A stretch of DNA of 25,635 nucleotides, taken from positions 1-25,635 of the IMG/VR virus record IMGVR_UViG_3300029448_000391; one strand, given 5' to 3'. The position numbers and the translations under genes were made by a program. Below the pieces are notes generated by a model. The model was not told the DNA's origin and made no database searches. It worked only from the letters and a program-made list of their open reading frames with translations. Numbering within the stretch: position 1 is the first letter of the stretch; every line of letters begins with the position of its first letter. This document shows positions 1 through 22,258 of the stretch, one piece after another. Source of the stretch: a virus (lineage: Duplodnaviria; Caudoviricetes).

Positions 1-661
1 CAGCTGTTACCATTTCTTCAATCTCAGATTTTAATTCTAAATTTTTATCTGTTGCAATTCTTAAAAACTTTTTAGGATTGCTGTTTTTTAATTCATATAA
101 AGAATTTTCAACCTGCTCTGAATTCATTTTGTCTGGATTAACATTAGACATTAATCTTAACACTCTTATCATAGATTTTAAATCAGTTGAAGTTTTAATA
201 AATGCTTTATCAGCATCTTTCTTTAATTGAATCTCATTGTTTTTTTCTTTATCTACTCTTGCAAGATCTTGGATATAAAACTTTTTTGTTACATCAGCGT
301 CCATTTCACTTTTAGAAAGTGCACAATAGGGATGTGATATAGCAAATCTGTATTTAATGTAGTCCATAATATTTAATGGCTTTCCATTTTCATCCTTAGA
401 TATTTCTAATTCAACTCCTGTAAACCCTACTGGAATTGTCATGTCTGCCCAGAATGTTTTAGAATGTTTAGGCCAATCTCCATGATCTGGATTAACATCT
501 AATATTCCGTTCATTAAATTTTTTTCTTCCTCCATAGAGAAAGGTTTTAAAGGTTGTCTATTTACATAAACACTACTAAGTCTAATTATAGCCTCAGCTC
601 GTACTGATTTTGGAAGATGACCTCCTAGGTCTTGTCTTCTTAAATATACTTTTTTACTCAT
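1..661 (-). CDS. Conserved crAss-like protein downstream of the major capsid gene (crAssphage gene 75-like), 3'-truncated by window edge
   Basis: Not in the ORF track. ATG at 661 opens a frame running off the left edge (MSKKVYLRRQDLGGHLPKSVRAEAIIRLSSVYVNRQPLKPF...FWADMTIPVGFTGVELEI...). Position directly after MCP matches the crAss capsid module. Confidence 0.7.
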   Translation of the reverse strand, partial: MSKKVYLRRQDLGGHLPKSVRAEAIIRLSSVYVNRQPLKPFSMEEEKNLMNGILDVNPDHGDWPKHSKTFWADMTIPVGFTGVELEISKDENGKPLNIMDYIKYRFAISHPYCALSKSEMDADVTKKFYIQDLARVDKEKNNEIQLKKDADKAFIKTSTDLKSMIRVLRLMSNVNPDKMNSEQVENSLYELKNSNPKKFLRIATDKNLELKSEIEEMVTA

Positions 662-803: not shown

Positions 804-2252
804 TTAAGACGCTACACATGTAATATCAAGCGAAGTATCAAATCTCTTAAGAGCAATACCTGCTGTTTTTAACATATGTACCGACGCACCGTCAACATCA
901 GAAGCTCTAGATGAAGTTGAATCAAATCCTCTAGGGACTACAGATCCAGCTACACACCATCTCATTGCTTCACGACCTTTCTTAGAAATCATCTGAAGGT
1001 TATTTTGACCATCATAATTTGATTGATCAACAAATACCATTCTGTAAGACTCTAAAGAGTATCCTGTTGTAGGGTGTTTTGCACGAGCTTGCGCCACGGC
1101 ACCATGATCAAATAATGGTAATTTTACCACATTGATTGTGTGTCCATCTACATGCTCATAGGAAGTGAAGTATCCAGTTAATCCTAGGCTACGTCCTGAT
1201 CCTGTGATAAATCTGTTTTCTCCACCTACTTTCCAAGAACCAGCTGCTCCCGAAAAGTGATTTTTAAGAGCCTCATCGAATTCTCTTGCACCACCAGTAC
1301 CAGTATATAAAGTTACTTGTTTAGTTGCTGCATCAGTCATTCCGTAGAATAAATCTCCGATAATGTTCTTAAGTTTAGTTTCAGTCATTGTAGAGTAAGT
1401 GTCAGTATTAACAATTTGCTCTAAAAGACCAGGACCTACGATTACAGGCTGACCATTTTCATCTTTCATGTAAGTCTGTCCGTTTGAATCATAAGTTTTT
1501 TGACCATACCAGTAATACATTTCACACTCTTCTTTAAAGTCAAGCATGTGTAAGTATTCTTCATAGTCCATCCAAAGTTTAGTAGTAGATCCTCCTTTAG
1601 TTGGTAAAGAAAATTCTGCTACAAAATCTTTAGCATTTCCAGACATGTGGTAAGATTTTCTAACTGTAGTTAGTTTATTTCTTACTTTACCTGGAGTTTC
1701 CCAGTTTGAAGCATTACCTCTAGAGAAGTCAACTCCTACTGGTGCGTACATTTGTGCAAAAAGCGCTCCTGCAGTAATATCTGCTGCTGCGATTGTTGCT
1801 GTTGCCGCTGGGTTTACTAATTGTAAAGTGTATTTCCAGTTAGAACCTACTGCTTCTGGTTCTTTCATAATACGTGCTTGTATACCTGATTGAGATACTA
1901 ATACGTATGGGAATACAAAATGTTTATCAGGAAACTCAAGCTCAAAGCTTGCTCCTCCTAATCCTACATTTGATGTTGATGCTGGTGTTGCTACTACTGG
2001 TCTCGTTCTCAATCTATGTGTTGCCACACGATATTCATACTCCAAGCGATCAATAGACTTTGTGTTACCAACACCTTCCGTTAAGAAAGATAGAGGGAAT
2101 CTTTTGTCATCTTTTCCTGCTAAATGAGTAATAATTGGAGACAGTTCAGTAGGTTTAGACAACAACGCGTTTGATAGACTGTTCATATCAGTCATCTGCG
2201 AATCATTGTAAAACGTTTTTTGAACGCTTATGTTTGTTCCATTTACTGCCAT
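804..2252 (-). CDS. Major capsid protein (crAss-like, HK97 fold)
   Basis: 482 aa, position after portal and scaffold-like gene. Segments such as NKLTTVRKSYHMSG, G.GLLEQI, LYTGTGGAREFD and HVDGHTINVVKLPLFD resemble crAss-like MCPs. Confidence 0.9.
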   Translation of the reverse strand: MAVNGTNISVQKTFYNDSQMTDMNSLSNALLSKPTELSPIITHLAGKDDKRFPLSFLTEGVGNTKSIDRLEYEYRVATHRLRTRPVVATPASTSNVGLGGASFELEFPDKHFVFPYVLVSQSGIQARIMKEPEAVGSNWKYTLQLVNPAATATIAAADITAGALFAQMYAPVGVDFSRGNASNWETPGKVRNKLTTVRKSYHMSGNAKDFVAEFSLPTKGGSTTKLWMDYEEYLHMLDFKEECEMYYWYGQKTYDSNGQTYMKDENGQPVIVGPGLLEQIVNTDTYSTMTETKLKNIIGDLFYGMTDAATKQVTLYTGTGGAREFDEALKNHFSGAAGSWKVGGENRFITGSGRSLGLTGYFTSYEHVDGHTINVVKLPLFDHGAVAQARAKHPTTGYSLESYRMVFVDQSNYDGQNNLQMISKKGREAMRWCVAGSVVPRGFDSTSSRASDVDGASVHMLKTAGIALKRFDTSLDITCVAS

Positions 2253-2297: not shown

Positions 2298-3386
2298 TTA
2301 TATATTAAGATCTAAATTATCTAAATCAAAACTTTTCTTTCGTCTTGATTGTTTACGAGCACTTTTTACAGTTTCTTCGTTTTTAGATATTTTTTCTCTC
2401 AATGTCTTCGTAGCCGTTGTTTTAGCTTTTTTGTTAATTATTTCTTCTAGATTAAATCCCTTATACATTAAATAATCTATAGCTAATTTTTGTTCCATTT
2501 CAGCTTTAGAGTGATCTATATCACGCTGTGTGTAACCATCCTTAGTTACCGGCTTCGAAAGATAATTAAAGAATTTTGTTTTTTCTCTTTCCGGAACTTG
2601 CAATCCTGCAAACTCTTTTGATTCTTTAATTGTCTCTTGCACACCATTCCAAAACTCTACTTGTTTTTCTTGCTCTTCTTGTAAAGATTGTTGTTGACGT
2701 GCTACTAATTGTTCTTTTTCCTGCGCTTGTACTTTACCTAAAGCTTGTCTTGCTGCTTCTGCTTTATTATGTAACTTACCAGAATCTTCATAATCTTCAA
2801 GCATTTCTTTAATAAAGCTTTCATCATGTCCTTTTTGGTAAAAGTAATCAGATAAAATTGCTTTTTGACTTCTTGAATCATCTTCAGAAATTTGCATTGT
2901 ATTATAATCTAAATTTGGATCATAAGCTGTCATAAATTTTTGAGATTCTCCTCCAGCTAATACATAATTTAAATGTTCTTTAACTAATGGAAATTTTTCA
3001 AGAACTTCATCAATTCTATCATCTGCCATTTGAGAAGCTACATCTTTAGTCATTTCTGTTAATCCTTCAGCTGTATCTTCATACTCTCCTTCATAGCCTA
3101 AACTAGTTAGTATTTCTTGTACAACTGTAGTATCAGAAACTTCGTCTTCTGTTTCTTCTTCCTCTTCTTTTTCTTCTACTTCTACTTCTACTTCTTTCTC
3201 TTCTTCTTCAGCTTCCTCTTCATCATTGTCTTCAATGTCTTCAAGTTCTGCTTCAGGTTTTTCTACTTCTTCTTTTACTTCTTCAATAGGTTCTATTTCA
3301 TCAATAGTATCCATTGCAACTCCATCACCCGCAATGACATCGTCAAAGGTAATATCGTCTAATTGTATTTTTTCATTTGGGTCCAT
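2298..3386 (-). CDS. Acidic scaffold-like/structural protein (crAssphage gene 77-like)
   Basis: Very Glu/Asp-rich N-terminus, helical coiled-coil middle, basic C-terminus, immediately upstream of MCP. Confidence 0.7.
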   Translation of the reverse strand: MDPNEKIQLDDITFDDVIAGDGVAMDTIDEIEPIEEVKEEVEKPEAELEDIEDNDEEEAEEEEKEVEVEVEEKEEEEETEDEVSDTTVVQEILTSLGYEGEYEDTAEGLTEMTKDVASQMADDRIDEVLEKFPLVKEHLNYVLAGGESQKFMTAYDPNLDYNTMQISEDDSRSQKAILSDYFYQKGHDESFIKEMLEDYEDSGKLHNKAEAARQALGKVQAQEKEQLVARQQQSLQEEQEKQVEFWNGVQETIKESKEFAGLQVPEREKTKFFNYLSKPVTKDGYTQRDIDHSKAEMEQKLAIDYLMYKGFNLEEIINKKAKTTATKTLREKISKNEETVKSARKQSRRKKSFDLDNLDLNI

Positions 3387-3476: not shown

Positions 3477-6215
3477 TTACCAGCATCCATACTTACATTT
3501 CTTTTTAAATCCTCCATATTCAAAAGGTACACATTTGTCTTTTCCATTCTCTGTTCCTGCATATCTATAACCATCCCAACAAGCTCTACCATCAGATCCT
3601 TTTTTCTTACCTCCTGTTTTAAAAATATCTTTAGTACTTTGATTCCATTTTTTTCTTTCTGCAGCTATTTCTTTTTTAGTTGCTTCATTTACAGGTACAG
3701 TTGTTTCTTTACCATCTCTTACTGCACTAACTCTACTTTTATGATTTTTTAGCCAATATTGAAACACTTCTTCTTGATTTGGTGAAGTAGTTCTATTTCT
3801 AGTTACTAAGTCAAACATATTTCTTCTTGGAGGGCCTCCAAATATTTTATCTCCTATAAATATTCCGTCTTGATTTGCTCTACTTGTTGTTGAAAGATCA
3901 GGATTTTTTTCTTTTGCTAATTTATTAATTTCTGGAAAATCTTTTAATTCTTTATCTGTATTAAACAAATGAAAACGATAATTTCTATTTAAAGCTGTAC
4001 TAGCTGCACCTTTATCAGACATTTCAAATTGATAAGCACCTCTACCAGGACCATCATAGAAAGTTCCGTCGTCTCTTTGTGAAACTTGTTTTTTATCATC
4101 TACATTTAAAGATTCGTGTTGTGCAATAGCATTCATTACAGTATTTACCATATTAGTATCTCTACCACTAGTATGTAAATAATTCATCATATGTTGTCTA
4201 TAATTTATAGGTTTTTCTTTTTTTTCATCATTATCAAAACCTCCTAATTTTTTTTCTGATGCTGCTCCTGCACCTACAGCAACAGGTGCTGCTGCCCATG
4301 CTTTTGAAATAACATTTCTAAGATCATCATACGTTGTATTAGGAGTAGTATTTCGTAATAATTCTTTAAAATCATCTGGTATCATTTCTTTACTTGGCCT
4401 TCTCCCTGAAACTTGTTCAAAAACTTCTTTTAACATATCATCTGACATACCAGCTTTAGTACCATCCCACTTATAGTTTCTTTTAAACCAGTCAGCTCCT
4501 CTTAAAAGTCTTACCTGTTGTTCTGCAGGTTTAGTCATATATTTAAACTCGCTTGATGTTTTGTTTATATTAAGTGTAGGATAGTTTTTATAAACTTTAT
4601 CCATTTTACCAGGTTGAACACCTTTAATATTAGCATACTTAGCTACTGCTGCATCTGCTTGCTTATCAGTTACTGCTTCTGCTAACTCTTTTTGTATTTT
4701 ATTAAGTTGCTCTGCTTCTTCTAATGCCTCTTTATATAAAGGAGATGATTTATCAAATTTTCCTGTAGGACTTAATAAGTGTTTTACCTCATGATCAATT
4801 ACTCCAAATGTATGATCACTTAGATTTTCTTGTAACCCTCTTCTAATTCCTATTTCTCCAGATTTGCTTGTAGCATATGCAGGATGTTGATAATAACCTT
4901 CCATACCTTTCATTTTAGGATCATTAGGACCTTTAAACTTCATAGGAGCAACTTCTAATTCTTTTATATACTCGTCAACTTGCTTTAAAACGGTTTCTTC
5001 AGATTCCCCTGTATTAGCCATTCTTTTAGATACATACTCATCACTTTGTAAATATTTTATATTTGAATCTTTTATTTTTGCAATTTTTAATTTATCTATT
5101 TCAGTTAGCTTAGGTATTTCATCGCTTACATCTGCTGTACGCAATATACTACTATTAGGGTATGAAGGTTTTGTTTTAGGTTTTGGTATATTATTTTTTT
5201 TAAATAAATTTTTTAATTTACCATATCCTTTTACAACAGGTCCTAATAAAACATCATCTATAAGTCCTGGTATTTTTGCTCCTGATGCTGATACTTTCAT
5301 ACTATTTAACAAAGGAATAGGTGCAGCAAAACCTAAAATAGTTTCACCATAATCTTGAGCCTTTTCTTTAGCCTCACCACTAGCATACATTTTATTAGAT
5401 GCTCCTGAGATCCATTGTTTATTAGGATTATTACCTGTAAATTTATCATAGTAATTACTAATAGTGCCTCCTGAAGTATTACTATTTGCCACCATTTGTT
5501 GAATTTGTTCCAACTTAGTTAAAGGTGTTTCTATTGTTGGGATATTAAAATTTTGAGATACATATGTAGAAGAAGGTTCTGCTGTATGTAATCCTCCATG
5601 AGATTTTTTTGTATTTGATTTATTTTTCCAATTTCCTTCCCTAGCAAAATCAATCATTTCTTCTTTAGTATCAAACTTGTATAGTTCACCTCTCTTTTTT
5701 GCTTCTTTAGCGTTACCTTTAAACCAGTTACCTTCTTCATCTTGAAATATACTTGGCCAAGCAGTTAAATTATTATCATCAGACATTAAGTGAGTTGAAT
5801 GCGGTTGTCCTTCATACATTGGAGTTTGTGAAAAGTATTCAGTATTTCTAACAGGATCAGTAATGACTGCTTTCTTATTTACTACATAAGTACTACCATC
5901 TCTAGATTTTACTCCACCTGTTTTTAATAACTGTGGTTCTGCTGATCCTGTTGGTAAATCTTGTATTTGTAGGGATGTATTACTAAAGCTATTTACTAAA
6001 GAGTCTTGCCCTACCGGAGGAGTTTCCATACTTACATTATTAACTGGAGGAGGAGTAGTTGGGGGTATAGACGCAGGTTCTTGTTGAACTTGCTGTTCTT
6101 GCATCTGTTCTTGTTGAGGTAAAACCGGTTGACCTTGAAGAGCTGCCATTATATCTCCAGATCCAGATGTTTTTACCTGTTCTAGTATAGCTCTTCTATC
6201 TTGGTTTGTTAGCAT
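3477..6215 (-). CDS. Large modular (polyvalent-like) protein with zincin-like HExxH module, lysozyme/transglycosylase-like module and CWxGY Cys motif
   Basis: 912 aa. HEVKH at aa 475-479 with downstream EQQVRL; AIAQHES...GPGRGAYQFE at about aa 696-731; ACWDGY...KCVP near the C-terminus; repeated xxGG motifs between modules. Start overlaps the portal stop. Confidence 0.6.
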   Translation of the reverse strand: MLTNQDRRAILEQVKTSGSGDIMAALQGQPVLPQQEQMQEQQVQQEPASIPPTTPPPVNNVSMETPPVGQDSLVNSFSNTSLQIQDLPTGSAEPQLLKTGGVKSRDGSTYVVNKKAVITDPVRNTEYFSQTPMYEGQPHSTHLMSDDNNLTAWPSIFQDEEGNWFKGNAKEAKKRGELYKFDTKEEMIDFAREGNWKNKSNTKKSHGGLHTAEPSSTYVSQNFNIPTIETPLTKLEQIQQMVANSNTSGGTISNYYDKFTGNNPNKQWISGASNKMYASGEAKEKAQDYGETILGFAAPIPLLNSMKVSASGAKIPGLIDDVLLGPVVKGYGKLKNLFKKNNIPKPKTKPSYPNSSILRTADVSDEIPKLTEIDKLKIAKIKDSNIKYLQSDEYVSKRMANTGESEETVLKQVDEYIKELEVAPMKFKGPNDPKMKGMEGYYQHPAYATSKSGEIGIRRGLQENLSDHTFGVIDHEVKHLLSPTGKFDKSSPLYKEALEEAEQLNKIQKELAEAVTDKQADAAVAKYANIKGVQPGKMDKVYKNYPTLNINKTSSEFKYMTKPAEQQVRLLRGADWFKRNYKWDGTKAGMSDDMLKEVFEQVSGRRPSKEMIPDDFKELLRNTTPNTTYDDLRNVISKAWAAAPVAVGAGAASEKKLGGFDNDEKKEKPINYRQHMMNYLHTSGRDTNMVNTVMNAIAQHESLNVDDKKQVSQRDDGTFYDGPGRGAYQFEMSDKGAASTALNRNYRFHLFNTDKELKDFPEINKLAKEKNPDLSTTSRANQDGIFIGDKIFGGPPRRNMFDLVTRNRTTSPNQEEVFQYWLKNHKSRVSAVRDGKETTVPVNEATKKEIAAERKKWNQSTKDIFKTGGKKKGSDGRACWDGYRYAGTENGKDKCVPFEYGGFKKKCKYGCW

Positions 6216-8478
6216 TCTGTTTTGCTATTTCTTTTTTACTTTCTATGTCCTCTCTTTTAAGAGCATTAGAATCCATGTCTCCTCTCATTTTTAATTCTAA
6301 CTCTTGCTCTTTTAATTCTAATTCTCGCTTTTTAAGTTCAAAATCTTGAATCATTTTTTCTAAATTAAGGGAGTTAACATCTGTTTGATCTTTAGATTCT
6401 GCAGATATTAAAGCAATCTCAATATCTTTTTGCCTATCTTTTTCTCTTTCAATGTTATCAGCTTCTAGTTGCATTTGTTGTGCTTCTAATTGTGCTTGTT
6501 GCTGTTCTTGTTGAGCTTGTTGTTGAGCTTGTTCTAATTCTTCATTTGCTTTGTCTGCAAGTTTAAGATTCTTTTTAATTTCAGTGAAACTATCTGAATC
6601 TAGCATCTCAGCTATATCTCCTGGCTTAGCACCATTCTGCATCATAGCTTGTGTTAATCCTTTAATGTTTTGTAGTTTTTCTTGATCTTTACCTGCATCA
6701 GAAACAAATATACCATAGTTAGTTTCCATATGATCCATACTATTTACATCTAAAAAGTCTGTAGTACCATCAGGCATTACAAACATTCCTTTTTTACCAG
6801 TTAACCATGCTTCTTTAGAATAATCTAGTAAAGCTTGGAAATCTCTTTGCTCCATTCTTTCAAACTTTCTAAATAAATCTTCTGTAATGTGTGATGATTG
6901 TAATATAGCTTGTTGTGAAGATGCTTTACCTTCATACGCTCCAATCTCACCTTGTCTTTGTCTACTTACACCAGATATTTTTTCCCATTCTACTAAAATA
7001 GAATCTAGCAAAGTAATGTATTGACTTATAGTTTTTATAGACATGTCCATAACAGATTGATGTTGTGGATTTAATTGTATTCCTTCTTTATTATAATCTA
7101 CCCAAGCAATACCTGTACCTTCTACGTAGTACATAAATTTATCCATGTCCCATTTTTTAGGGATCATGTTAATATCAAATTGTGCAATTATATCTTTACT
7201 TCTTGCAATAGCAAGTTCTAATCTGTACTTATATATGTTGTAATTTAACTGATAAGGTATTCCAAGCTTAACTAAAGATATATTTTTAGAGTTTGTATCA
7301 GAATATCTTCTCCCATTAATTGGTAGTTTACACTTAGATGGATTGTCTATAGATAATCTCTGGTTAAGAATAGGATTTATGTTTATATATATTCTACCAT
7401 CTATTCTTGTACCTTCCCATACTTCATTTACCCATTTCCATTCCATTGTAGCTCCCTGCTCTTTTAATTCTGCAGGCATTCTAAATCCATCTTCAACTTC
7501 TACCTCTTCAATGCTTCCAGTTTCTTGATCAAGGTAAGTTAAAAATCCTATTCTTTTTCTAGACTTCCAATATACATTTATAACTTCAATTAATCTATTC
7601 CTAAATGCATTTGTATCTTTATTTGCTGAATTAGCATATAAAAAAGAAATATCACCCTCAGAATGTTTTGGTTCTTCAAGTTCTAGTATTTGTTGTTCTG
7701 ATAAACTCTCATAGTAAGCATCAATAACTGTAGATGCATGTACATACTTTCTAACTAATGCCCAATCTCCATCTTCTACAAATTCTAAATCTGGATCAAG
7801 GTCATAATCTACATCTAAAGGATTTAATACAGAGTAATAAGGTTCTCCGTTTCTTACTCCTCTTTGTGTATAAGCCTCACCAGTTACTAAATAATGAAAC
7901 CAAGCTTTTTGTATTTTATCATAAACTTCTTGCTCTTGCATTACATAGTTTAAAGTTTTTTGCCCTAATACAGCTCTATTATCTATATAAGAACTTTCAA
8001 ACATGTCTGCAATATGTTTAGGAGTTGGTATTTCTTCCATATTAGCTCCTATATCTACTCCTTGTGCTTGCACTTCTTGTAAAAAACTTTGTCTTAAATT
8101 TTGTGCTATTGTTTCAGACTTTTCCATTTCTTTTAAAGTAAGGGCGTCTGAGTTTTGTACTGTAACAGTATAATTGAGAGGTCTTTTCGATTTTTCCCCT
8201 AGAAGAAGGTCAATTATGGGTTTAATGATAGGGTAGTTACGCATTTCAGAAGGAAAATTCTTACGGGCTTTGCCATAAGGTTTTAGTACGTAATTATAAT
8301 CAGCCTCGTCAATTACACCGTTATAGTAATCATATAATATCTTAAGGTCATTCTTTTGTTTAGAATGTGTTTGACCTGAATTAGAAAGATCTATAAATGC
8401 CTCCACACATTCTTCTCCCCATTTCTTATTCTTCTTATTAATCGAGAGCTTTTGTCTCGGTATTTTATCGTATCCCAT
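6196..8478 (-). CDS. Portal protein (crAss-like)
   Basis: 760 aa following terminase. YDYYNG, NYPIIKPIIDLLLGE, WVNEVWEG, ISGVSRQRQG and a Gln/Glu-rich C-terminal coiled coil are typical of crAss-like portals. Confidence 0.9.
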   Translation of the reverse strand: MGYDKIPRQKLSINKKNKKWGEECVEAFIDLSNSGQTHSKQKNDLKILYDYYNGVIDEADYNYVLKPYGKARKNFPSEMRNYPIIKPIIDLLLGEKSKRPLNYTVTVQNSDALTLKEMEKSETIAQNLRQSFLQEVQAQGVDIGANMEEIPTPKHIADMFESSYIDNRAVLGQKTLNYVMQEQEVYDKIQKAWFHYLVTGEAYTQRGVRNGEPYYSVLNPLDVDYDLDPDLEFVEDGDWALVRKYVHASTVIDAYYESLSEQQILELEEPKHSEGDISFLYANSANKDTNAFRNRLIEVINVYWKSRKRIGFLTYLDQETGSIEEVEVEDGFRMPAELKEQGATMEWKWVNEVWEGTRIDGRIYININPILNQRLSIDNPSKCKLPINGRRYSDTNSKNISLVKLGIPYQLNYNIYKYRLELAIARSKDIIAQFDINMIPKKWDMDKFMYYVEGTGIAWVDYNKEGIQLNPQHQSVMDMSIKTISQYITLLDSILVEWEKISGVSRQRQGEIGAYEGKASSQQAILQSSHITEDLFRKFERMEQRDFQALLDYSKEAWLTGKKGMFVMPDGTTDFLDVNSMDHMETNYGIFVSDAGKDQEKLQNIKGLTQAMMQNGAKPGDIAEMLDSDSFTEIKKNLKLADKANEELEQAQQQAQQEQQQAQLEAQQMQLEADNIEREKDRQKDIEIALISAESKDQTDVNSLNLEKMIQDFELKKRELELKEQELELKMRGDMDSNALKREDIESKKEIAKQNANKPR

Positions 8479-8555: not shown

Positions 8556-8891
8556 CTATAAGTAATTGCAAATATCATAAAGACTATATTTTAAAGTTAA
8601 TTCTTCTCCTGCCTCTATCTTACGTAATGTTTTTATTACTTTATAATGATAATCTTCGTCTTTATCTAGTAATTCACAGTTAGCATTGTCATTATGATTA
8701 ATAAATCCTCCTAATGGTGTCCTAATATAATCATGTTGAAAGTTTGGATCGTAAATATGTGTAATACCTATAACAACCTCTCCCGGAATATCTTCTTTTG
8801 CTAGGATCCCTGCTCCGTGTATGTTTGATGGTCCAATCGCCAAGTATTCTGGTAGAGGGTTATAAGGTTCACAATCTTTTTTTCTATTCAT
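8556..8891 (-). CDS. Stand-alone SET-domain protein (putative protein-lysine methyltransferase)
   Basis: SNIHGAGILAKEDI (GxG motif I), GFINHNDNANC (NH motif III), IEAGEELTLKY (ELxxxY motif IV). Confidence 0.85.
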   Translation of the reverse strand: MNRKKDCEPYNPLPEYLAIGPSNIHGAGILAKEDIPGEVVIGITHIYDPNFQHDYIRTPLGGFINHNDNANCELLDKDEDYHYKVIKTLRKIEAGEELTLKYSLYDICNYL

Positions 8892-11108: not shown

Positions 11109-11629
11109 TACATACTATATTTATTTACTTCAATACCGCCTCTGTTTGTATTAGCGGCTTGTTCTTCTTTTTTAACTATTTCTTCTAGATTTCTAAGACC
11201 ATCTACTACTTTTCCCATTTTTTCTAAGTTATTAATTAGATCTTTTGCGTGAAAAATTGGTCTTCCGTTATCATCTATTAAAGTTAAGTCTATATCTCTA
11301 AAGTATTTTTCTAATTTTATTACAGACTCTCGTGCAGCTCGTAATAATCTTACTGCAGATGTTTCTATTAGTTTATCGTATTTTTTACAAGCTGCTAATA
11401 CTTTAGAATTAGGTGTAAACTTATTATCTGCTCCAAATATACTATTTTTTACTTCAATTACACGTTGTTCCCATTCATATACAGAAAAAGGTGATTTATG
11501 GTCTGTTGTAAAATATACAAAAGCAAGTTCTTTTGGTTTTAATTCTTTAAACTCAATAATAGTTAAAGCATACCCACTAAGAACAGCTTTATTATCTACT
11601 ATATGTATTAAATCATCCCTTAGACTCAT
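11108..11629 (-). CDS. Conserved crAss-like protein, candidate terminase small subunit
   Basis: 173 aa, helical, two genes upstream of terL, C-terminal ...NRGG tail. Function is inferred from position only. Confidence 0.5.
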   Translation of the reverse strand: MSLRDDLIHIVDNKAVLSGYALTIIEFKELKPKELAFVYFTTDHKSPFSVYEWEQRVIEVKNSIFGADNKFTPNSKVLAACKKYDKLIETSAVRLLRAARESVIKLEKYFRDIDLTLIDDNGRPIFHAKDLINNLEKMGKVVDGLRNLEEIVKKEEQAANTNRGGIEVNKYSM

Positions 11630-11834
11630 TTTTTAATTTATTTATGTGTTTAACTCTGTTAGGGTTTACAGAAAACTTTCCAAAATATGGTAGTCTTATC
11701 ATTTCAAATTTTCCTTCTTTCATTATCTTTTCTACAAATTTAAACTGATGATTTACGATTTGTTCTACTTTTTGTAGAGGTAAATTATGCTTTGTTGCTA
11801 GTATTTGTATTATTGTTTTCTTGTCCTTGGCCAT
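11613..11834 (-). CDS. HU/IHF-like DNA-binding protein (short)
   Basis: KKTIIQILATKHNLPLQKVEQIV...IRLPYFGKFSV matches the HU/IHF helical body plus the l.gFG.F strand; the arm is truncated. Confidence 0.75.
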   Translation of the reverse strand: MAKDKKTIIQILATKHNLPLQKVEQIVNHQFKFVEKIMKEGKFEMIRLPYFGKFSVNPNRVKHINKLKNESKG

Positions 11835-12766: not shown

Positions 12767-13002
12767 TTCTTTTTTATTTTAACCATTCTATTTGTATCTA
12801 TCTCAATAACTGAAGATTTAGATTGTTTATTAAATTCTGTAAGATAAGGTGCTATATCAGTACGACTTACTATAAAAGACAAGAATACTTGTAATTCTTT
12901 AAGTAATAAATCACTTTTTTCTTGTAATTCTAGAGTTTGTATCTTAGCATCTAATAATGCATGATAATCTTCTAGTTTCATAGTAACTTGACCTTTTACC
13001 AC
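12763..13002 (-). CDS. Hypothetical protein
   Basis: 79 aa, start overlaps the groES stop. Confidence 0.65.
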   Translation of the reverse strand: MVKGQVTMKLEDYHALLDAKIQTLELQEKSDLLLKELQVFLSFIVSRTDIAPYLTEFNKQSKSSVIEIDTNRMVKIKKK

Positions 13003-13265
13003 TTACCTAATATTTGATGTTCTGAAATAACTAAGTATAATTGACCATCAATCTCTGTTCTTGCAGCTTCTGATCTAGGATCTACCATTACAATGTCACC
13101 TTTTTCTACAAAGTTACAATGAGGCCCAACAGCAAGCGCCTCCAAAACGTTTGATCGCTTTGCATTTTCTTTAGCTGTACTCTCATCTAAGATTATTCCT
13201 GATTCTGTTTCTGTAATTACTGGGTCCGGAAGGACTATCCAGCTTCCACTTGGTTTAAAATTCAT
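12996..13265 (-). CDS. groES: Co-chaperonin GroES (Cpn10)
   Basis: FKPSGSWIVL, mobile loop ETESGIIL, AVGP, VEKGDIV, IDGQLYLVISEHQILG. Confidence 0.9.
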   Translation of the reverse strand: MNFKPSGSWIVLPDPVITETESGIILDESTAKENAKRSNVLEALAVGPHCNFVEKGDIVMVDPRSEAARTEIDGQLYLVISEHQILGKW

Positions 13266-13282
13266 ATCTATATATTTTTCTG

Positions 13283-13315
13283 CAAATATATAAACAATTT
13301 TTTTACATTTCCAAA
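13283..13315 (-). promoter_or_regulatory. Bacteroidota primary-sigma promoter for groES-terminase operon
   Basis: TTTG (13312-13315), 21-nt spacer, TATATTTG (13283-13290): perfect -33/-7 consensus 17 nt before the groES ATG. Confidence 0.8.
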
Positions 13316-13320
13316 TATCT

Positions 13321-13572
13321 GTGGAGAAAATATAGCTCTCCCCCTTGAGGATTCTATTTCAAGTTGTGATTTCACTCTAGCAGTGCTCCGTTTTACGGGA
13401 CCCAAGGATACTAAAACTGGTGTTAATTCACCGCACCTACCTGTGTGCATTGTATCCTAACTAGAGTTTATACGTTAACTCTTTTGCAACTACCGGAGAA
13501 AACTCTATCTCTATTTGAGACTACAATCCGATGTCTAATCCCTTTTTTGGTTACCGAGGGATGAATAATGTT
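13321..13572 (-). ncRNA. Candidate structured non-coding RNA (unknown family)
   Basis: GC-enriched intergenic stretch with about ten stems including nested multibranch helices. Upstream TATCTTTGC promoter element. G-U extensions favour the minus strand. Confidence 0.55.
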
Positions 13573-13578
13573 GCGGTG

Positions 13579-13586
13579 CAAAGATA
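13579..13586 (-). promoter_or_regulatory. Bacteroidota -7 promoter element upstream of candidate ncRNA
   Basis: TATCTTTG followed by CA; AT-rich upstream; no exact TTTG at canonical -33 spacing. Confidence 0.6.
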
Positions 13587-13738
13587 TAAAAACTTTCTGT
13601 TAAAAAATAAAATTACCAAAAAAAATTTTTTTTACTGGGTTTGTGAACGTGTGAACCAACACAATCAACGACCCCTGCTATGCTACGCACTTAAAACACC
13701 CCGTATTGGGTTGTTGGTGTAAATACATAATTTGCCTT

Positions 13739-13993
13739 ATGAATAATTCAATTTCAGCGACGTATATTCGTCCAACTCAATCACTCAACCACGTAATGGT
13801 TGCGTATCAAACTAATATATTCTCTACTAATAAGACTATTGCTTATGTAAAGAATAGTGACTTTTTTAAATCTTTTGTTAAAGGACAAGAGTTTAAATTA
13901 CCAGCTAATCCTCGTCCTGTATTTCGTTTCCAAGAGAATGGAGACAGATATGAGTATTCTGATGGTACACCTCAAGTGTATTTAGAGTGGTAA
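13739..13993 (+). CDS. Hypothetical early protein (84 aa)
   Basis: Track ORF 13706..13993, with ATG at 13739 the likelier start. Followed by an intrinsic terminator. Confidence 0.65.
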   Translation: MNNSISATYIRPTQSLNHVMVAYQTNIFSTNKTIAYVKNSDFFKSFVKGQEFKLPANPRPVFRFQENGDRYEYSDGTPQVYLEW

Positions 13994-13996
13994 GAT

Positions 13997-14017
13997 AAGG
14001 GACTTTGTCCCTTTTTT
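13997..14017 (+). terminator. Intrinsic terminator
   Basis: AAGGGAC-TTT-GTCCCTT followed by T run, 3 nt after the stop codon. Confidence 0.75.
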
Positions 14018-14160
14018 AAACCACAATCAAAACAACTACGAACACACAATCAAAAACACTTGCTATTTTATGCGTAAGTGTGCAAACTAGCACGCATGCA
14101 CGTCATTTGGCACTTATTTTACAATCAATCTAATCAATCACATTAATACAATATAACACT

Positions 14161-14442
14161 ATGGAAACATTTATTATAATATTATCAATACTATCAGCTT
14201 ACATCTTTGGCTTTATGTCTGGTATAATTTACCAACGTAAAACAAACAAAGAGAAAGAAATGATTAAAGATCTATTCAAATCAGACCAAAAGCATACTTT
14301 ATCTAAAACTAAGAAAAAGAAAGTTTATGATTTATACAATGATATGCCTGGTGGCTTTGGTACATTTGGTCCAGGCAACAGCAATGGTCCAGCAAGTACT
14401 ATTAAAGAATCAACTTATCCAATTCCTGGAGTTAGTAAATAA
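14161..14442 (+). CDS. Small membrane-anchored hypothetical protein
   Basis: N-terminal hydrophobic helix FIIILSILSAYIFGFMSGIIY followed by a basic stretch. Confidence 0.7.
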   Translation: METFIIILSILSAYIFGFMSGIIYQRKTNKEKEMIKDLFKSDQKHTLSKTKKKKVYDLYNDMPGGFGTFGPGNSNGPASTIKESTYPIPGVSK

Positions 14443-14613
14443 TAACTATGAGTAGGGTTTTTGTTAATGTCAATCTTATTTAGTCGTAAACTTAGACATT
14501 AATTTTTGTTTTCATAATACTTGTTCCTACTCATAGTTAACTTTAAAAAGACTCATAAACTCTGCTTATTATCACTACTTTGATAGATGATAGGAGTATG
14601 ATAAGAGTCTTTT
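14443..14613 (+). other. Tandem long intergenic stem-loops
   Basis: TAACTATGAGTAGG (14443-14456) / CCTACTCATAGTTA (14526-14539), 14 bp perfect, with inner TTAATGTC/GACATTAA. AAAAGACTC (14546-14554) / GAGTCTTTT (14605-14613). Confidence 0.7.
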
Positions 14614-14683
14614 ATTAATAAACAAGGTTTGTGATATACCTTTTTAAAATCACTAATTAATCCATTTAAAACCAATTAAACAA

Positions 14684-15349
14684 ATGGCAAATCAAATTAA
14701 CAGTGGTAGTCTAAGCACTCTAAAACTAGACCAAACTTTATTATCTCATGTACAAAAAGCAGCTAATGATTCATATCAAGCTTGTTTTATTGAGAGAATC
14801 GATCGTAATAACACACCAACAACTGAGTCAGATAGTGACGAGATAGATGCACTATCAGTTCTAAACTATGGTGACGAGAGATTTCAGCAAGGTAGTAGAA
14901 CTTATGTTTATAAGAGAATTACTCCAGAGAGTATCGAGCTAATGCAAATTAAAAATGCTGATGGAACAGCTTTTAATCTTGATGCAGCTACATTCTCAGC
15001 TAAAACTACTAAAGCAGGTAAAGTTGTACAAGCTTGTGATCTAAATGTTTTAAATCCTGTGGTATCAGCTACAGATCACCCTAATGTAGGGATGAGATTT
15101 AGAATTAAGCTTGTAGAAACTCATGAGCCATCACAATGGCAAGCAGATAACAATGCACATAAGATTAATCCTTCGACTAAAGAAGCGTTAACTGTTACTG
15201 ATCCTACAACTGGTGAGATTAAGAAAATCTACAGTGCTCACAATGTTGTGTTATCAACTGCTAATCCTAAGCATATGCTTATTGCACATGACAGGGTAAC
15301 AGTAAATGCTGAAGCTAGTGTTAAAAAGGCTGAAATGAGTATGATGTAA
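14684..15349 (+). CDS. Hypothetical protein, possibly ssDNA/nucleic-acid binding
   Basis: 221-aa beta-rich ORF with strong A-rich leader. No diagnostic motif recognised. Confidence 0.6.
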   Translation: MANQINSGSLSTLKLDQTLLSHVQKAANDSYQACFIERIDRNNTPTTESDSDEIDALSVLNYGDERFQQGSRTYVYKRITPESIELMQIKNADGTAFNLDAATFSAKTTKAGKVVQACDLNVLNPVVSATDHPNVGMRFRIKLVETHEPSQWQADNNAHKINPSTKEALTVTDPTTGEIKKIYSAHNVVLSTANPKHMLIAHDRVTVNAEASVKKAEMSMM

Positions 15350-21550: not shown

Positions 21551-22258
21551 ATGGAAATTATGGAATTACCAAAAGCAAAGGTTAAAGCGAGCCGTAAATC
21601 GCCTAAAAATATGATAATATATGGTGCACCTAAAATAGGTAAAACTACTGTATTGTCACAACTAGATAATTGTTTAATCATTGACTTGGAGGACGGCTCA
21701 GATATGGTAGACGCTTTAAAAGTTAAAGCTCACAATCTAAAAGACCTTCAAGCTATTGGCTCAGCAATTATTAAAGAGGGGAAACCTTATAAATATATAG
21801 CTATAGATACTATATCTAAGCTAGAAGAATGGTGTGAAGTTTATGCTAAACAAATTTATATGAGGACTCCTATGGGTAAAAACTTTGATAAAAATAATCC
21901 TGGAGCATCAGTTCTATCACTGCCAAACGGCGCCGGCTACTTATATTTAAGAATGGCCTACAAAGAATGGATAGACAAACTGAATAAACTTGCGGATCAC
22001 GTAATCTTAGTTGGACATCTTAAAGATAAAATGCTTGAAAAGAAAGGTAAAGAGGTTGCTGTAAAGGACCTTGATTTAACTGGAAAAATTAAGCAGATTA
22101 CTTGCACTAATTCAGATGCTATTGGTTATATTTACAGGGAAGGAACAAATACTATGATTTCTTTCGATTCCCTAGATGATATAGCTGCTGGTACTAGATG
22201 TGCGCACTTAAAGGGCAAGGCCATGCCTTTAGAATGGTCAGAAATTTTTATAGATTAA
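21551..22258 (+). CDS. Sak4-like / AAA_24 ATPase (single-strand annealing recombinase)
   Basis: IYGAPKIGKTT, IIDLEDG, IAIDTI, ILVGH, DAIGY. Confidence 0.8.
   Translation: MEIMELPKAKVKASRKSPKNMIIYGAPKIGKTTVLSQLDNCLIIDLEDGSDMVDALKVKAHNLKDLQAIGSAIIKEGKPYKYIAIDTISKLEEWCEVYAKQIYMRTPMGKNFDKNNPGASVLSLPNGAGYLYLRMAYKEWIDKLNKLADHVILVGHLKDKMLEKKGKEVAVKDLDLTGKIKQITCTNSDAIGYIYREGTNTMISFDSLDDIAAGTRCAHLKGKAMPLEWSEIFID

Follow-up and report, generated by a model that had tools for sequence, protein, structure and literature searches.

Why would a gene in the head module of a crAss-like phage encode a chain of unlike domains, each ending in a variant of the same short peptide, and what, if anything, reads that peptide? 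The question is raised by a 912-aa open reading frame (ORF) located at 3477..6215 on the minus strand of a 25,635-nucleotide stretch of viral DNA (IMG/VR record IMGVR_UViG_3300029448_000391; hereinafter the window, that is, this stretch in its full length). The product, labeled P0001, is encoded between the portal protein and an acidic, scaffold-like protein, a position that we refer to as the slot. Comparison with related phages leads us to conclude that the 912-aa gene encodes a cassette-built protein, the modules of which are exchanged between these phages at recurrent peptides containing a Gly-Gly (GG) pair, the seams. As for the function of the seams, several explanations have to be weighed, and the one that we tentatively favor is proteolytic processing.

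P0001 contains seven GG pairs, at aa 100, 207, 249, 658, 793, 868 and 901, exactly as described in the initial annotation of the gene, which singled out five of them as boundary motifs and noted only two others (249 and 793). The number of pairs is at the chance level (7 against 4.92 expected from the glycine content; Poisson P 0.23), and was dropped as evidence for the seams. When 71 GG windows from 29 relatives that have another leader are used to train a seam profile, the five claimed sites come out at ranks 1, 2, 3, 4 and 7 among the 25 GG pairs in the ORFs of the window, and the two unclaimed pairs at 17 and 21 (rank-sum P 7.5e-5), although this test is not fully independent because the training proteins share some modules with P0001. 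In the resulting consensus, which is loose, residues that are basic or aromatic precede two variable positions and the GG, after which come a hydrophobic and often a basic residue; the positions that flank the GG are conserved. A profile built from leader ends only was set aside: it generalizes poorly, with 29/50 high-scoring and 104/301 low-scoring GG pairs located at breakpoints.

The case for exchange comes from alignments at both the protein and the DNA levels. Among 79 distinct proteins (42 homologues together with complete slot ORFs from homologous loci), 206 of the 662 clustered alignment breakpoints fall within 8 aa of a GG pair, against 92.5 expected, and those on P0001 cluster at 95-107, 199-215, 660-673 and 857-869; site 901, which lies inside the end margin of this test, is marked by DNA segments starting at aa 897-898 and by a contig joint at 3509-3606. 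At the DNA level, the relative L002 shares nt 1-303, 1972-2607 (99% identity) and 2692-2739 of the gene, and the GG codons of seams 1, 3 and 4 (gene nt 298-303, 1972-1977 and 2602-2607) are the exact ends of L002 segments. Swaps within a few codons of seams are found in four further relatives (L009, L019, L023, L025), one crossover on seam codons has 7 shared letters, and in a sequencing run from another study (X4), contigs joined across 5600-5904 and 3509-3606 lack modules B and E, respectively. When the 78 distinct slot proteins, a set that includes near-identical relatives, are cut at the scored seams, 280 segments are obtained that form 41 clusters and 45 architectures; 74 of the 78 begin with the same leader, and module D, represented by 44 segments, has six different upstream neighbors. 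The check proposed earlier, whether homologues acquire or shed modules at the GG motifs, is answered positively by these breakpoints, the L002 DNA and the contig joints, and the idea of independently swappable units is borne out as well: cassettes move between relatives, and some modules are free genes elsewhere.

Is it the DNA or the peptide that is conserved at the seams? All 67 slot ORFs with the leader in the first set of loci end the leader in GG, via 10 codon pairs, and 14 of the 16 GG codon pairs are used over 122 contexts; given that GG is kept while synonymous codons change freely, the constraint is on the peptide. The codon pair GGT GGA is over-used (45 versus 22 expected); a Shine-Dalgarno origin of the GG codons was rejected, GGAGGT being depleted (9 versus 22). 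The same short peptide closes every module, so that its codons would give the microhomology for cassette exchange, and we infer that the seam codons double as crossover points.

The modules themselves are described here in order from the N-terminus, all on the minus strand. The constant leader (aa 1-101; 5913..6215) comprises a conserved N-terminal stretch of 29 aa and a shortened DUF192 remnant. Relatives with longer leaders carry DUF192 (PF02643 in 22 of the 47 relatives scanned, and absent from P0001), and the P0001 leader is 30% identical to that of the relative G001 (E 7e-5). The leader closes with seam 1 (GG aa 100-101; 5913..5918), at the last base of which the L002 identity stops. Module B (aa 102-208; 5592..5912) is predicted to be a small folded alpha/beta domain (AlphaFold2 (AF2) model with a mean predicted local distance difference test score (pLDDT) of 73.8) with no PDB match, no fold match above Z 3.5, and only unnamed viral clusters among its Atlas matches; in other phages, it is a stand-alone gene of 103-144 aa with the same borders, in some of them located, as judged by eye, between ring-like and muzzle-like genes. 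Seam 2 (GG aa 207-208; 5592..5597) has breakpoints at 199-215 and pLDDT < 50. Module C (aa 209-659; 4239..5591) combines an N-terminal part (209-345) with a zincin-like metallopeptidase domain that contains HEVKH at aa 475-479 (4779-4793) and, downstream, an EQQxR motif that is invariant in the alignment; it resembles Zmp1 (3zuk; Z 6.5, rmsd 4.2, 110 aligned) and ECE-1 (3dwb; Z 6.2), with zincin folds overall at Z 6.0-6.5. This module is itself a mosaic, with breakpoints at 321-341 and 374-430 and no GG there, so that the original statement that the motifs fall at boundaries between unlike segments holds insofar as breakpoints cluster at the motifs and fails for the HExxH unit. At the first base of seam 3 (GG aa 658-659; 4239..4244), the 99%-identical segment of L002 begins, and at the last base of seam 4 (GG aa 868-869; 3609..3614; breakpoints 857-869), it finishes. 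Between them lies module D (aa 660-869; 3609..4238), a lysozyme/lytic-transglycosylase-like domain with a conserved HES motif (Glu701), similar to phiKZ gp144 (3bkh; Z 7.6, rmsd 4.7, 137 aligned), lambda lysozyme (1am7; Z 7.1) and Slt70 (Z 6.5). Module E (aa 870-902; 3510..3608) is a portable two-cysteine CWxGY hairpin peptide that includes at its terminus seam 5 (GG aa 901-902; 3510..3515), and is followed by a basic tail of 10 aa (3477..3509). Such short terminal and spacer segments are basic throughout the slot family (31% K+R and 3% D+E, n=101).

The domains of P0001 are named from fold Z scores of 6.5-7.6 and from motifs, rather than from family matches. Pfam has no family for P0001 at E 0.05 and PHROG one weak match, there is no sequence match among solved structures, and Foldseek returned nothing for either model. 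With all Z scores for modules C and D below 8, we consider both the zincin-like and the lysozyme-like assignments to be of moderate strength; the per-segment structure prediction suggested at the outset did recover these two units. AF2 modeling of aa 346-871 places seam 3 in a linker (aa 642-667; pLDDT < 50) and seam 4 (GG868) in the disordered end; the non-seam GG793 is inside a folded block, with pLDDT 87.

The relatives extend this repertoire. Among the 47 scanned, SLT is found in four, phage-tail lysozyme in two and ART-PolyVal in one. A slot protein of 1553 aa (L049:12294-16955) has an ART-PolyVal ADP-ribosyltransferase domain (E 3e-14). By eye, P0006 (aa 937-1056) and L255:912-2099 contain beta-barrel-like modules whose last residues, Y-x-F, stand next to a seam or form the C-terminus, resembling the ends of outer-membrane proteins. 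At the other extreme, a slot protein of 149 aa (L257:3516-3965, L259:300-749) consists of a DUF192-type leader, one seam and a basic 14-aa tail, with no cargo module. A different leader motif (SP-hydrophobic-K, FPFK), which could be a third address code, is found on module B and on small basic proteins in another phage group (L226, L229, L234, L244; P0067, P0094, P0102).

Where else does the seam occur? Of the 137 GG pairs in G001 (83.7 kb, 97% complete), 14 of the 15 with the highest scores fall in four proteins, namely, the slot protein (itself used to train the profile), the products of the two genes after the muzzle gene, and a 144-aa, very basic protein with eight GG pairs that is encoded between ring genes (L089:11964-12398) and is a candidate precursor of internal DNA-condensing peptides. 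By the genome scan for the motif, one of the checks proposed initially, the seam is confined to a small number of proteins in each genome, and all of these belong to virion modules. The crAss001 gene that follows the muzzle gene encodes the cargo protein C1, gp45, detected in virions by mass spectrometry and cryo-EM, with two resolved segments, 214-245 in the tail and 425-552 in the head on the portal, 420 A apart (Bayfield et al., 2023; PMC10172136). Each of these segments falls within a single unit delimited by AxGG, the A-x-GG sites of gp45 being located at residues 207, 261, 330, 370, 425, 560 and 826. A further protein, P0087, provides the link to P0001: in it, AFGG seams connect homologues of modules D and B, zincins and a crAss_CARG1 domain, and of these seams, one aligns with the gp45 AFGG at 425 (E 1e-7) and one with seam 2 of P0001. 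The direct connections are missing: BLAST detects no match between P0001 and gp45, Pfam detects no crAss_CARG1 portal-binding domain in P0001, and a 964-aa gene of G001, C1-like by position and eye only, has no BLAST or Pfam link.

An indication of what the seams might do is given by the CWxGY module, which we found at 119 viral loci in 77 distinct contexts. Of these, 43 are preceded by Glu, 8 are at an N-terminus, 25 are of other kinds, and a single one, crAss-like, is bounded by GG. Glu stands upstream of the module in 42/66 cases, against 7.9 expected from the same proteins, and downstream in 47/61, against 17.0 expected; these contexts come from related phages and are not independent events, so that P values overstate the excess, which tells against reading too much into it. 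The T4 gp21-type protease (PF03420) is encoded in 6 of 9 hand-picked long records, and the three in which it was missed are 45-46% complete. The T4 enzyme gp21 cleaves after Glu; it takes off targeting propeptides and trims Alt at either end (PMC5694885, PMC9958956). With the module Glu-bordered in phages that have a T4-type protease, the seam appears to occupy the place that a known maturation site has elsewhere. This comparison of Glu with GG borders, an analogy, is the main reason to favor processing.

Our tentative preference, held at somewhat short of even confidence, is that P0001 is packed in the head and that the seams are processing sites which release the modules as separate proteins. 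The presence of the protein in the virion is likely, given the position of the gene and the modules it shares with cargo. Late expression would be coupled to that of the portal; the leader and the basic terminal peptides would tether the precursor, inside the prohead, to either the acidic scaffold-like protein or the portal; a phage or host protease would then cut at the seams, which would play the role of the Glu sites in phages with a T4 gp21-type protease; and the freed modules, muralytic and metallopeptidase ones in P0001, ADP-ribosyltransferase and beta-barrel-like ones in relatives, would be ejected to act at entry. Any cut more likely falls 2-3 residues before GG, after the aromatic position, than after GG. 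On a wider scale, and with more reserve, we consider the possibility that crassviruses process injected cargo via their own protease reading aromatic-x-x-Gly-Gly, a lineage counterpart of the Glu code of T4, and that a portable pool of modules is shared between phage families and re-addressed with each family's seam.

A number of facts weigh against processing and have to be faced. Away from any GG lie 456 of the 662 breakpoints. The leader-end profile gives negative scores to sites 207, 658 and 901, so the motif is loose. In a sister lineage, the leader ends without GG and has a YQQP-type seam instead. Unlike the substrates in T4, the shell components lack the seam: the best GG of the capsid protein scores 1.0 and that of the scaffold-like protein -10.8, and the portal has no GG. 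The marine profile does not single out the gp45 sites, and the A-x-GG pattern, 7 of the 8 hits of which in the crAss001 proteome are in gp45, was tuned on gp45. Furthermore, the modeled gp45 segment 425-552 opens with A425-F-G-G428 continuous with the domain, which makes a cut after GG unlikely; AFGG at the start of the segment fits a bound tag or, alternatively, a cut just before x-x-GG. As to whether the GG motifs lie inside folded domains, GG658 and GG868 are in unfolded linkers of P0001, and the gp45 model runs through AFGG.

Neither did the searches identify the protease that processing calls for. Proteases of families C48, C39 and S78 were found in 0 of 5 records, one of them near-complete, with the controls detected, and the S77 prohead protease was not found in the 97%-complete G001, though six other records yielded it; a C5 search also gave 0/5, with no control detected either. 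Among 64 chosen proteins of G001 and G002, the Pfam scan showed only an M15 peptidase and HExxH proteins as proteases. A zincin acting in cis is not required since HExxH is present in only 36 of the 78 slot proteins (42 lack it). Zincins are also present in giant proteins linked to RNA polymerase and were proposed as processing enzymes in a preprint on phi14:2 (10.1101/2020.03.07.982082), and MPTase processing of polyvalent proteins into units is proposed in the sections consulted of Iyer et al. (2017; PMC5512222). As to the cut itself, we re-ran peptide-mass fingerprinting on 13 crAss001 gel peak lists (source data of PMC6235969). The fingerprints recover gp44, gp47/gp50, gp49, the portal, gp26, gp22, gp25, gp23, the capsid, gp36 and gp29 (the last from 2 peaks), and no band of full-length gp45 (91 kDa), for which bands 5-9 together leave 1 residual match where chance would give 1.9; the masses of the bands are deduced from the identifications. 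The absence of gp45 lends weak support to fragmentation; gp46, a protein without seams, was likewise not found, and few small bands were excised, which again counts against processing. An apparent gp45 signal in band 7 (5 versus 0.9) disappeared after recalibration and removal of gp22/25/26 peaks. Bands 1 and 2, the largest, give fingerprints of the muzzle gp44 together with gp34 and gp40, both ring proteins, a composition that cross-linking of tail parts could account for.

Could the seams, then, be read without being cut? They might be docking or capsid-loading tags that bind the portal, the scaffold or the inner shell, with the protein packed and ejected whole, a possibility that we take seriously while rather doubting it. 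It would account for the ordered AFGG with which the portal-bound segment of gp45 begins, for the failure to find a head protease (C48, C39 and S78 in five records, S77 in G001) and for shell proteins without the motif; tandem copies with basic spacers and the multi-copy 144-aa basic protein would suit multivalent binding, and the form consisting of the leader, one seam and a 14-aa tail also fits. However, a tag would not have to flank each module on both sides, gp46/47/49/50 are packed although they have no such motif, the equivalent borders in T4-type phages carry the residue read by a protease, and, as a weak point, the gel lacks full-length gp45. The initial interpretation had offered maturation-protease and capsid-loading signals side by side, and both still stand, together with the swappable modules; what finds no support is a cut after GG in the manner of adenovirus or the African swine fever virus (ASFV) by an ULP/adenain-like enzyme, with no C48, C39, S77 or S78 protease found in the 97%-complete G001 and the gp45 model running through AFGG, nor does the comparison with MuF-type cargo, given that Pfam detects no MuF domain in P0001.

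An explanation with no reader at all appears unlikely: the seam would be a mere flexible hinge that aids unfolding through the tail, combined with a recombination scar copied with each cassette. Crossovers on seam codons, including the one with 7 shared letters, the excess of GGT GGA (45 versus 22), the Sak4-like annealing protein (phrog_124) encoded in the window and the low confidence of the seam linkers in the model are all compatible with it, as is the modeling of gp45 as one chain threaded through the portal in the part available of Bayfield et al. (PMC10172136). Yet mere copying does not explain why GG is kept with free synonymous change at 67/67 leader ends and why the flanking positions are conserved, nor why seams related to those of P0001 persist in a gut phage with a 28%-identical portal; besides, seams also adjoin the extreme N- and C-termini, where no hinge is needed. 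Finally, it is quite improbable that P0001 decorates the outside of the particle or is a late protein of the infected cell, its seams having another reader, even though the genes after the portal in crAss001 encode head and tail fibers and no cultured phage matches P0001. Its modules are shared with a protein that bears a portal-binding cargo domain, and the relatives carry ART-PolyVal, SLT and phage-tail lysozyme units that are typical of injected proteins.

How do these proteins compare with known systems? The adenovirus protease and pS273R of ASFV process virion precursors at Gly-Gly, and the likeness extends to a di-glycine at the unit borders of a virion precursor and to small basic peptides; the differences are that here there is no C48 match, the consensus is loose, and the solved homologous seam is unbroken after GG. 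In T4, internal head proteins share short terminal propeptides (PMC5694885 and PMC9958956, in the parts available), and cargo units bordered by one recurring short site are found here too, with CWxGY edged by Glu there and by GG here; T4 differs in that the near-complete G001 has no S77 protease, the capsid and scaffold-like proteins lack the site, and the particle here is of the podovirus type. The polyvalent proteins described by Iyer et al. (2017) likewise unite enzymatic domains of several dissimilar kinds in a single protein of the late region; a zincin-like MPTase (HExxH and a downstream Glu) and lysozyme are common to both, as is, in one relative of P0001, ART-PolyVal, but the sections consulted describe no counterpart of the repeated border seam (PMC5512222). 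P0001 has at least two unlike effector domains that vary between relatives, as polyvalent proteins do; the MuF/ArdC-N anchor, frequent among them and not universal, is absent, the leader of the relatives being of the DUF192 type. The closest parallel in the same virus order is crAss001 C1 gp45, in which A-x-GG seams separate the tail-bound and portal-bound segments and which is linked to P0001 modules via P0087; P0001 differs in having no crAss_CARG1 domain, no BLAST match to gp45, and another locus. Bayfield et al. (2023) treat gp45 as uncut, and the available main text contains neither "cleav" nor "protease" (PMC10172136); nor does the portion available of a crassvirus review mention "protease" (PMC10136315). 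In the open-access literature searched, we found no paper describing this seam and no crassvirus maturation protease. Polyvalent cargo and head signals read by a protease are known kinds; what is added here is the portal-scaffold slot, the codon-exact exchange, the test of Glu versus GG borders and the gel re-analysis.

The genomic setting is that of Crassvirales, with the terminase (phrog_6681), the portal protein (6196..8478; PF16510, E 2e-7; phrog_6547, E 2e-126), P0001, the acidic scaffold-like protein (2298..3386; 362 aa, 27% D+E) and the crassvirus major capsid protein (804..2252; PF23898, E 9e-84) encoded in the conserved order on the minus strand. The start of P0001 overlaps the stop of the portal by 20 nt. 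The scaffold role, assigned from position, is putative, and no family match was detected for this protein in Pfam or PHROG; neither it nor the capsid protein, as noted above, carries a high-scoring seam. G001 also encodes crAss_MUZ and CrAss_Ring, and its capsid protein is 84% identical. Cultured crassviruses are distant, with the best portal identity of 34% and no match to P0001, and the sequencing runs that contain the 912-aa gene are marine. An assembly chimera is contradicted by the contigs of run X1, possibly the source sample itself, which tile the entire gene with zero mismatch; in RNA runs, only 5-8% of the gene's words are present.

Several other features of the locus and its relatives deserve mention. 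In the sister lineage (L225:2039-2719; L246-L252; L251:7381-9921), the seams of the slot protein are of the form TY(Q/K)Q..IN(D/N)W, with no GG, and the gene after the slot opens with a basic leader followed by KYQQP; the seam may have been replaced lineage-wide. A SET-domain gene (8556-8891, minus strand; PF00856, E 5e-9), kept by close relatives between the terminase and the portal, possibly encodes a protein methyltransferase of the head module. After the capsid gene comes a conserved gene (2-661, minus strand) that matches only unnamed clusters, with no family or Atlas name, and that is a candidate for an assembly or maturation factor. The window further encodes an HU-like protein (11613-11834) and a GroES-like co-chaperonin (12996-13265), both on the minus strand; next to the latter is a gene-poor stretch (13266-14680) at the strand switch between head and replication genes, and the GC skew changes sign near 14500-15000. 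The Sak4-like annealing protein (21551-22258, plus strand) could drive short-homology cassette exchange.

What would these findings mean for the biology of crassviruses? Crassvirales include the most abundant gut phages, and the seam gives exact positions to look at in the cargo of a cultured phage, crAss001 gp45. If the seams are cut, the head and tail portions of gp45 would be separate fragments rather than one chain threaded 420 A through the portal, the published threading model would have to be revised, and a new protease would be indicated. If they are uncut tags, the seam would be a loading signal usable for putting proteins into phages of Bacteroidota. Whichever holds, the slot is hypervariable and built of cassettes, and its units can be delimited and annotated singly.

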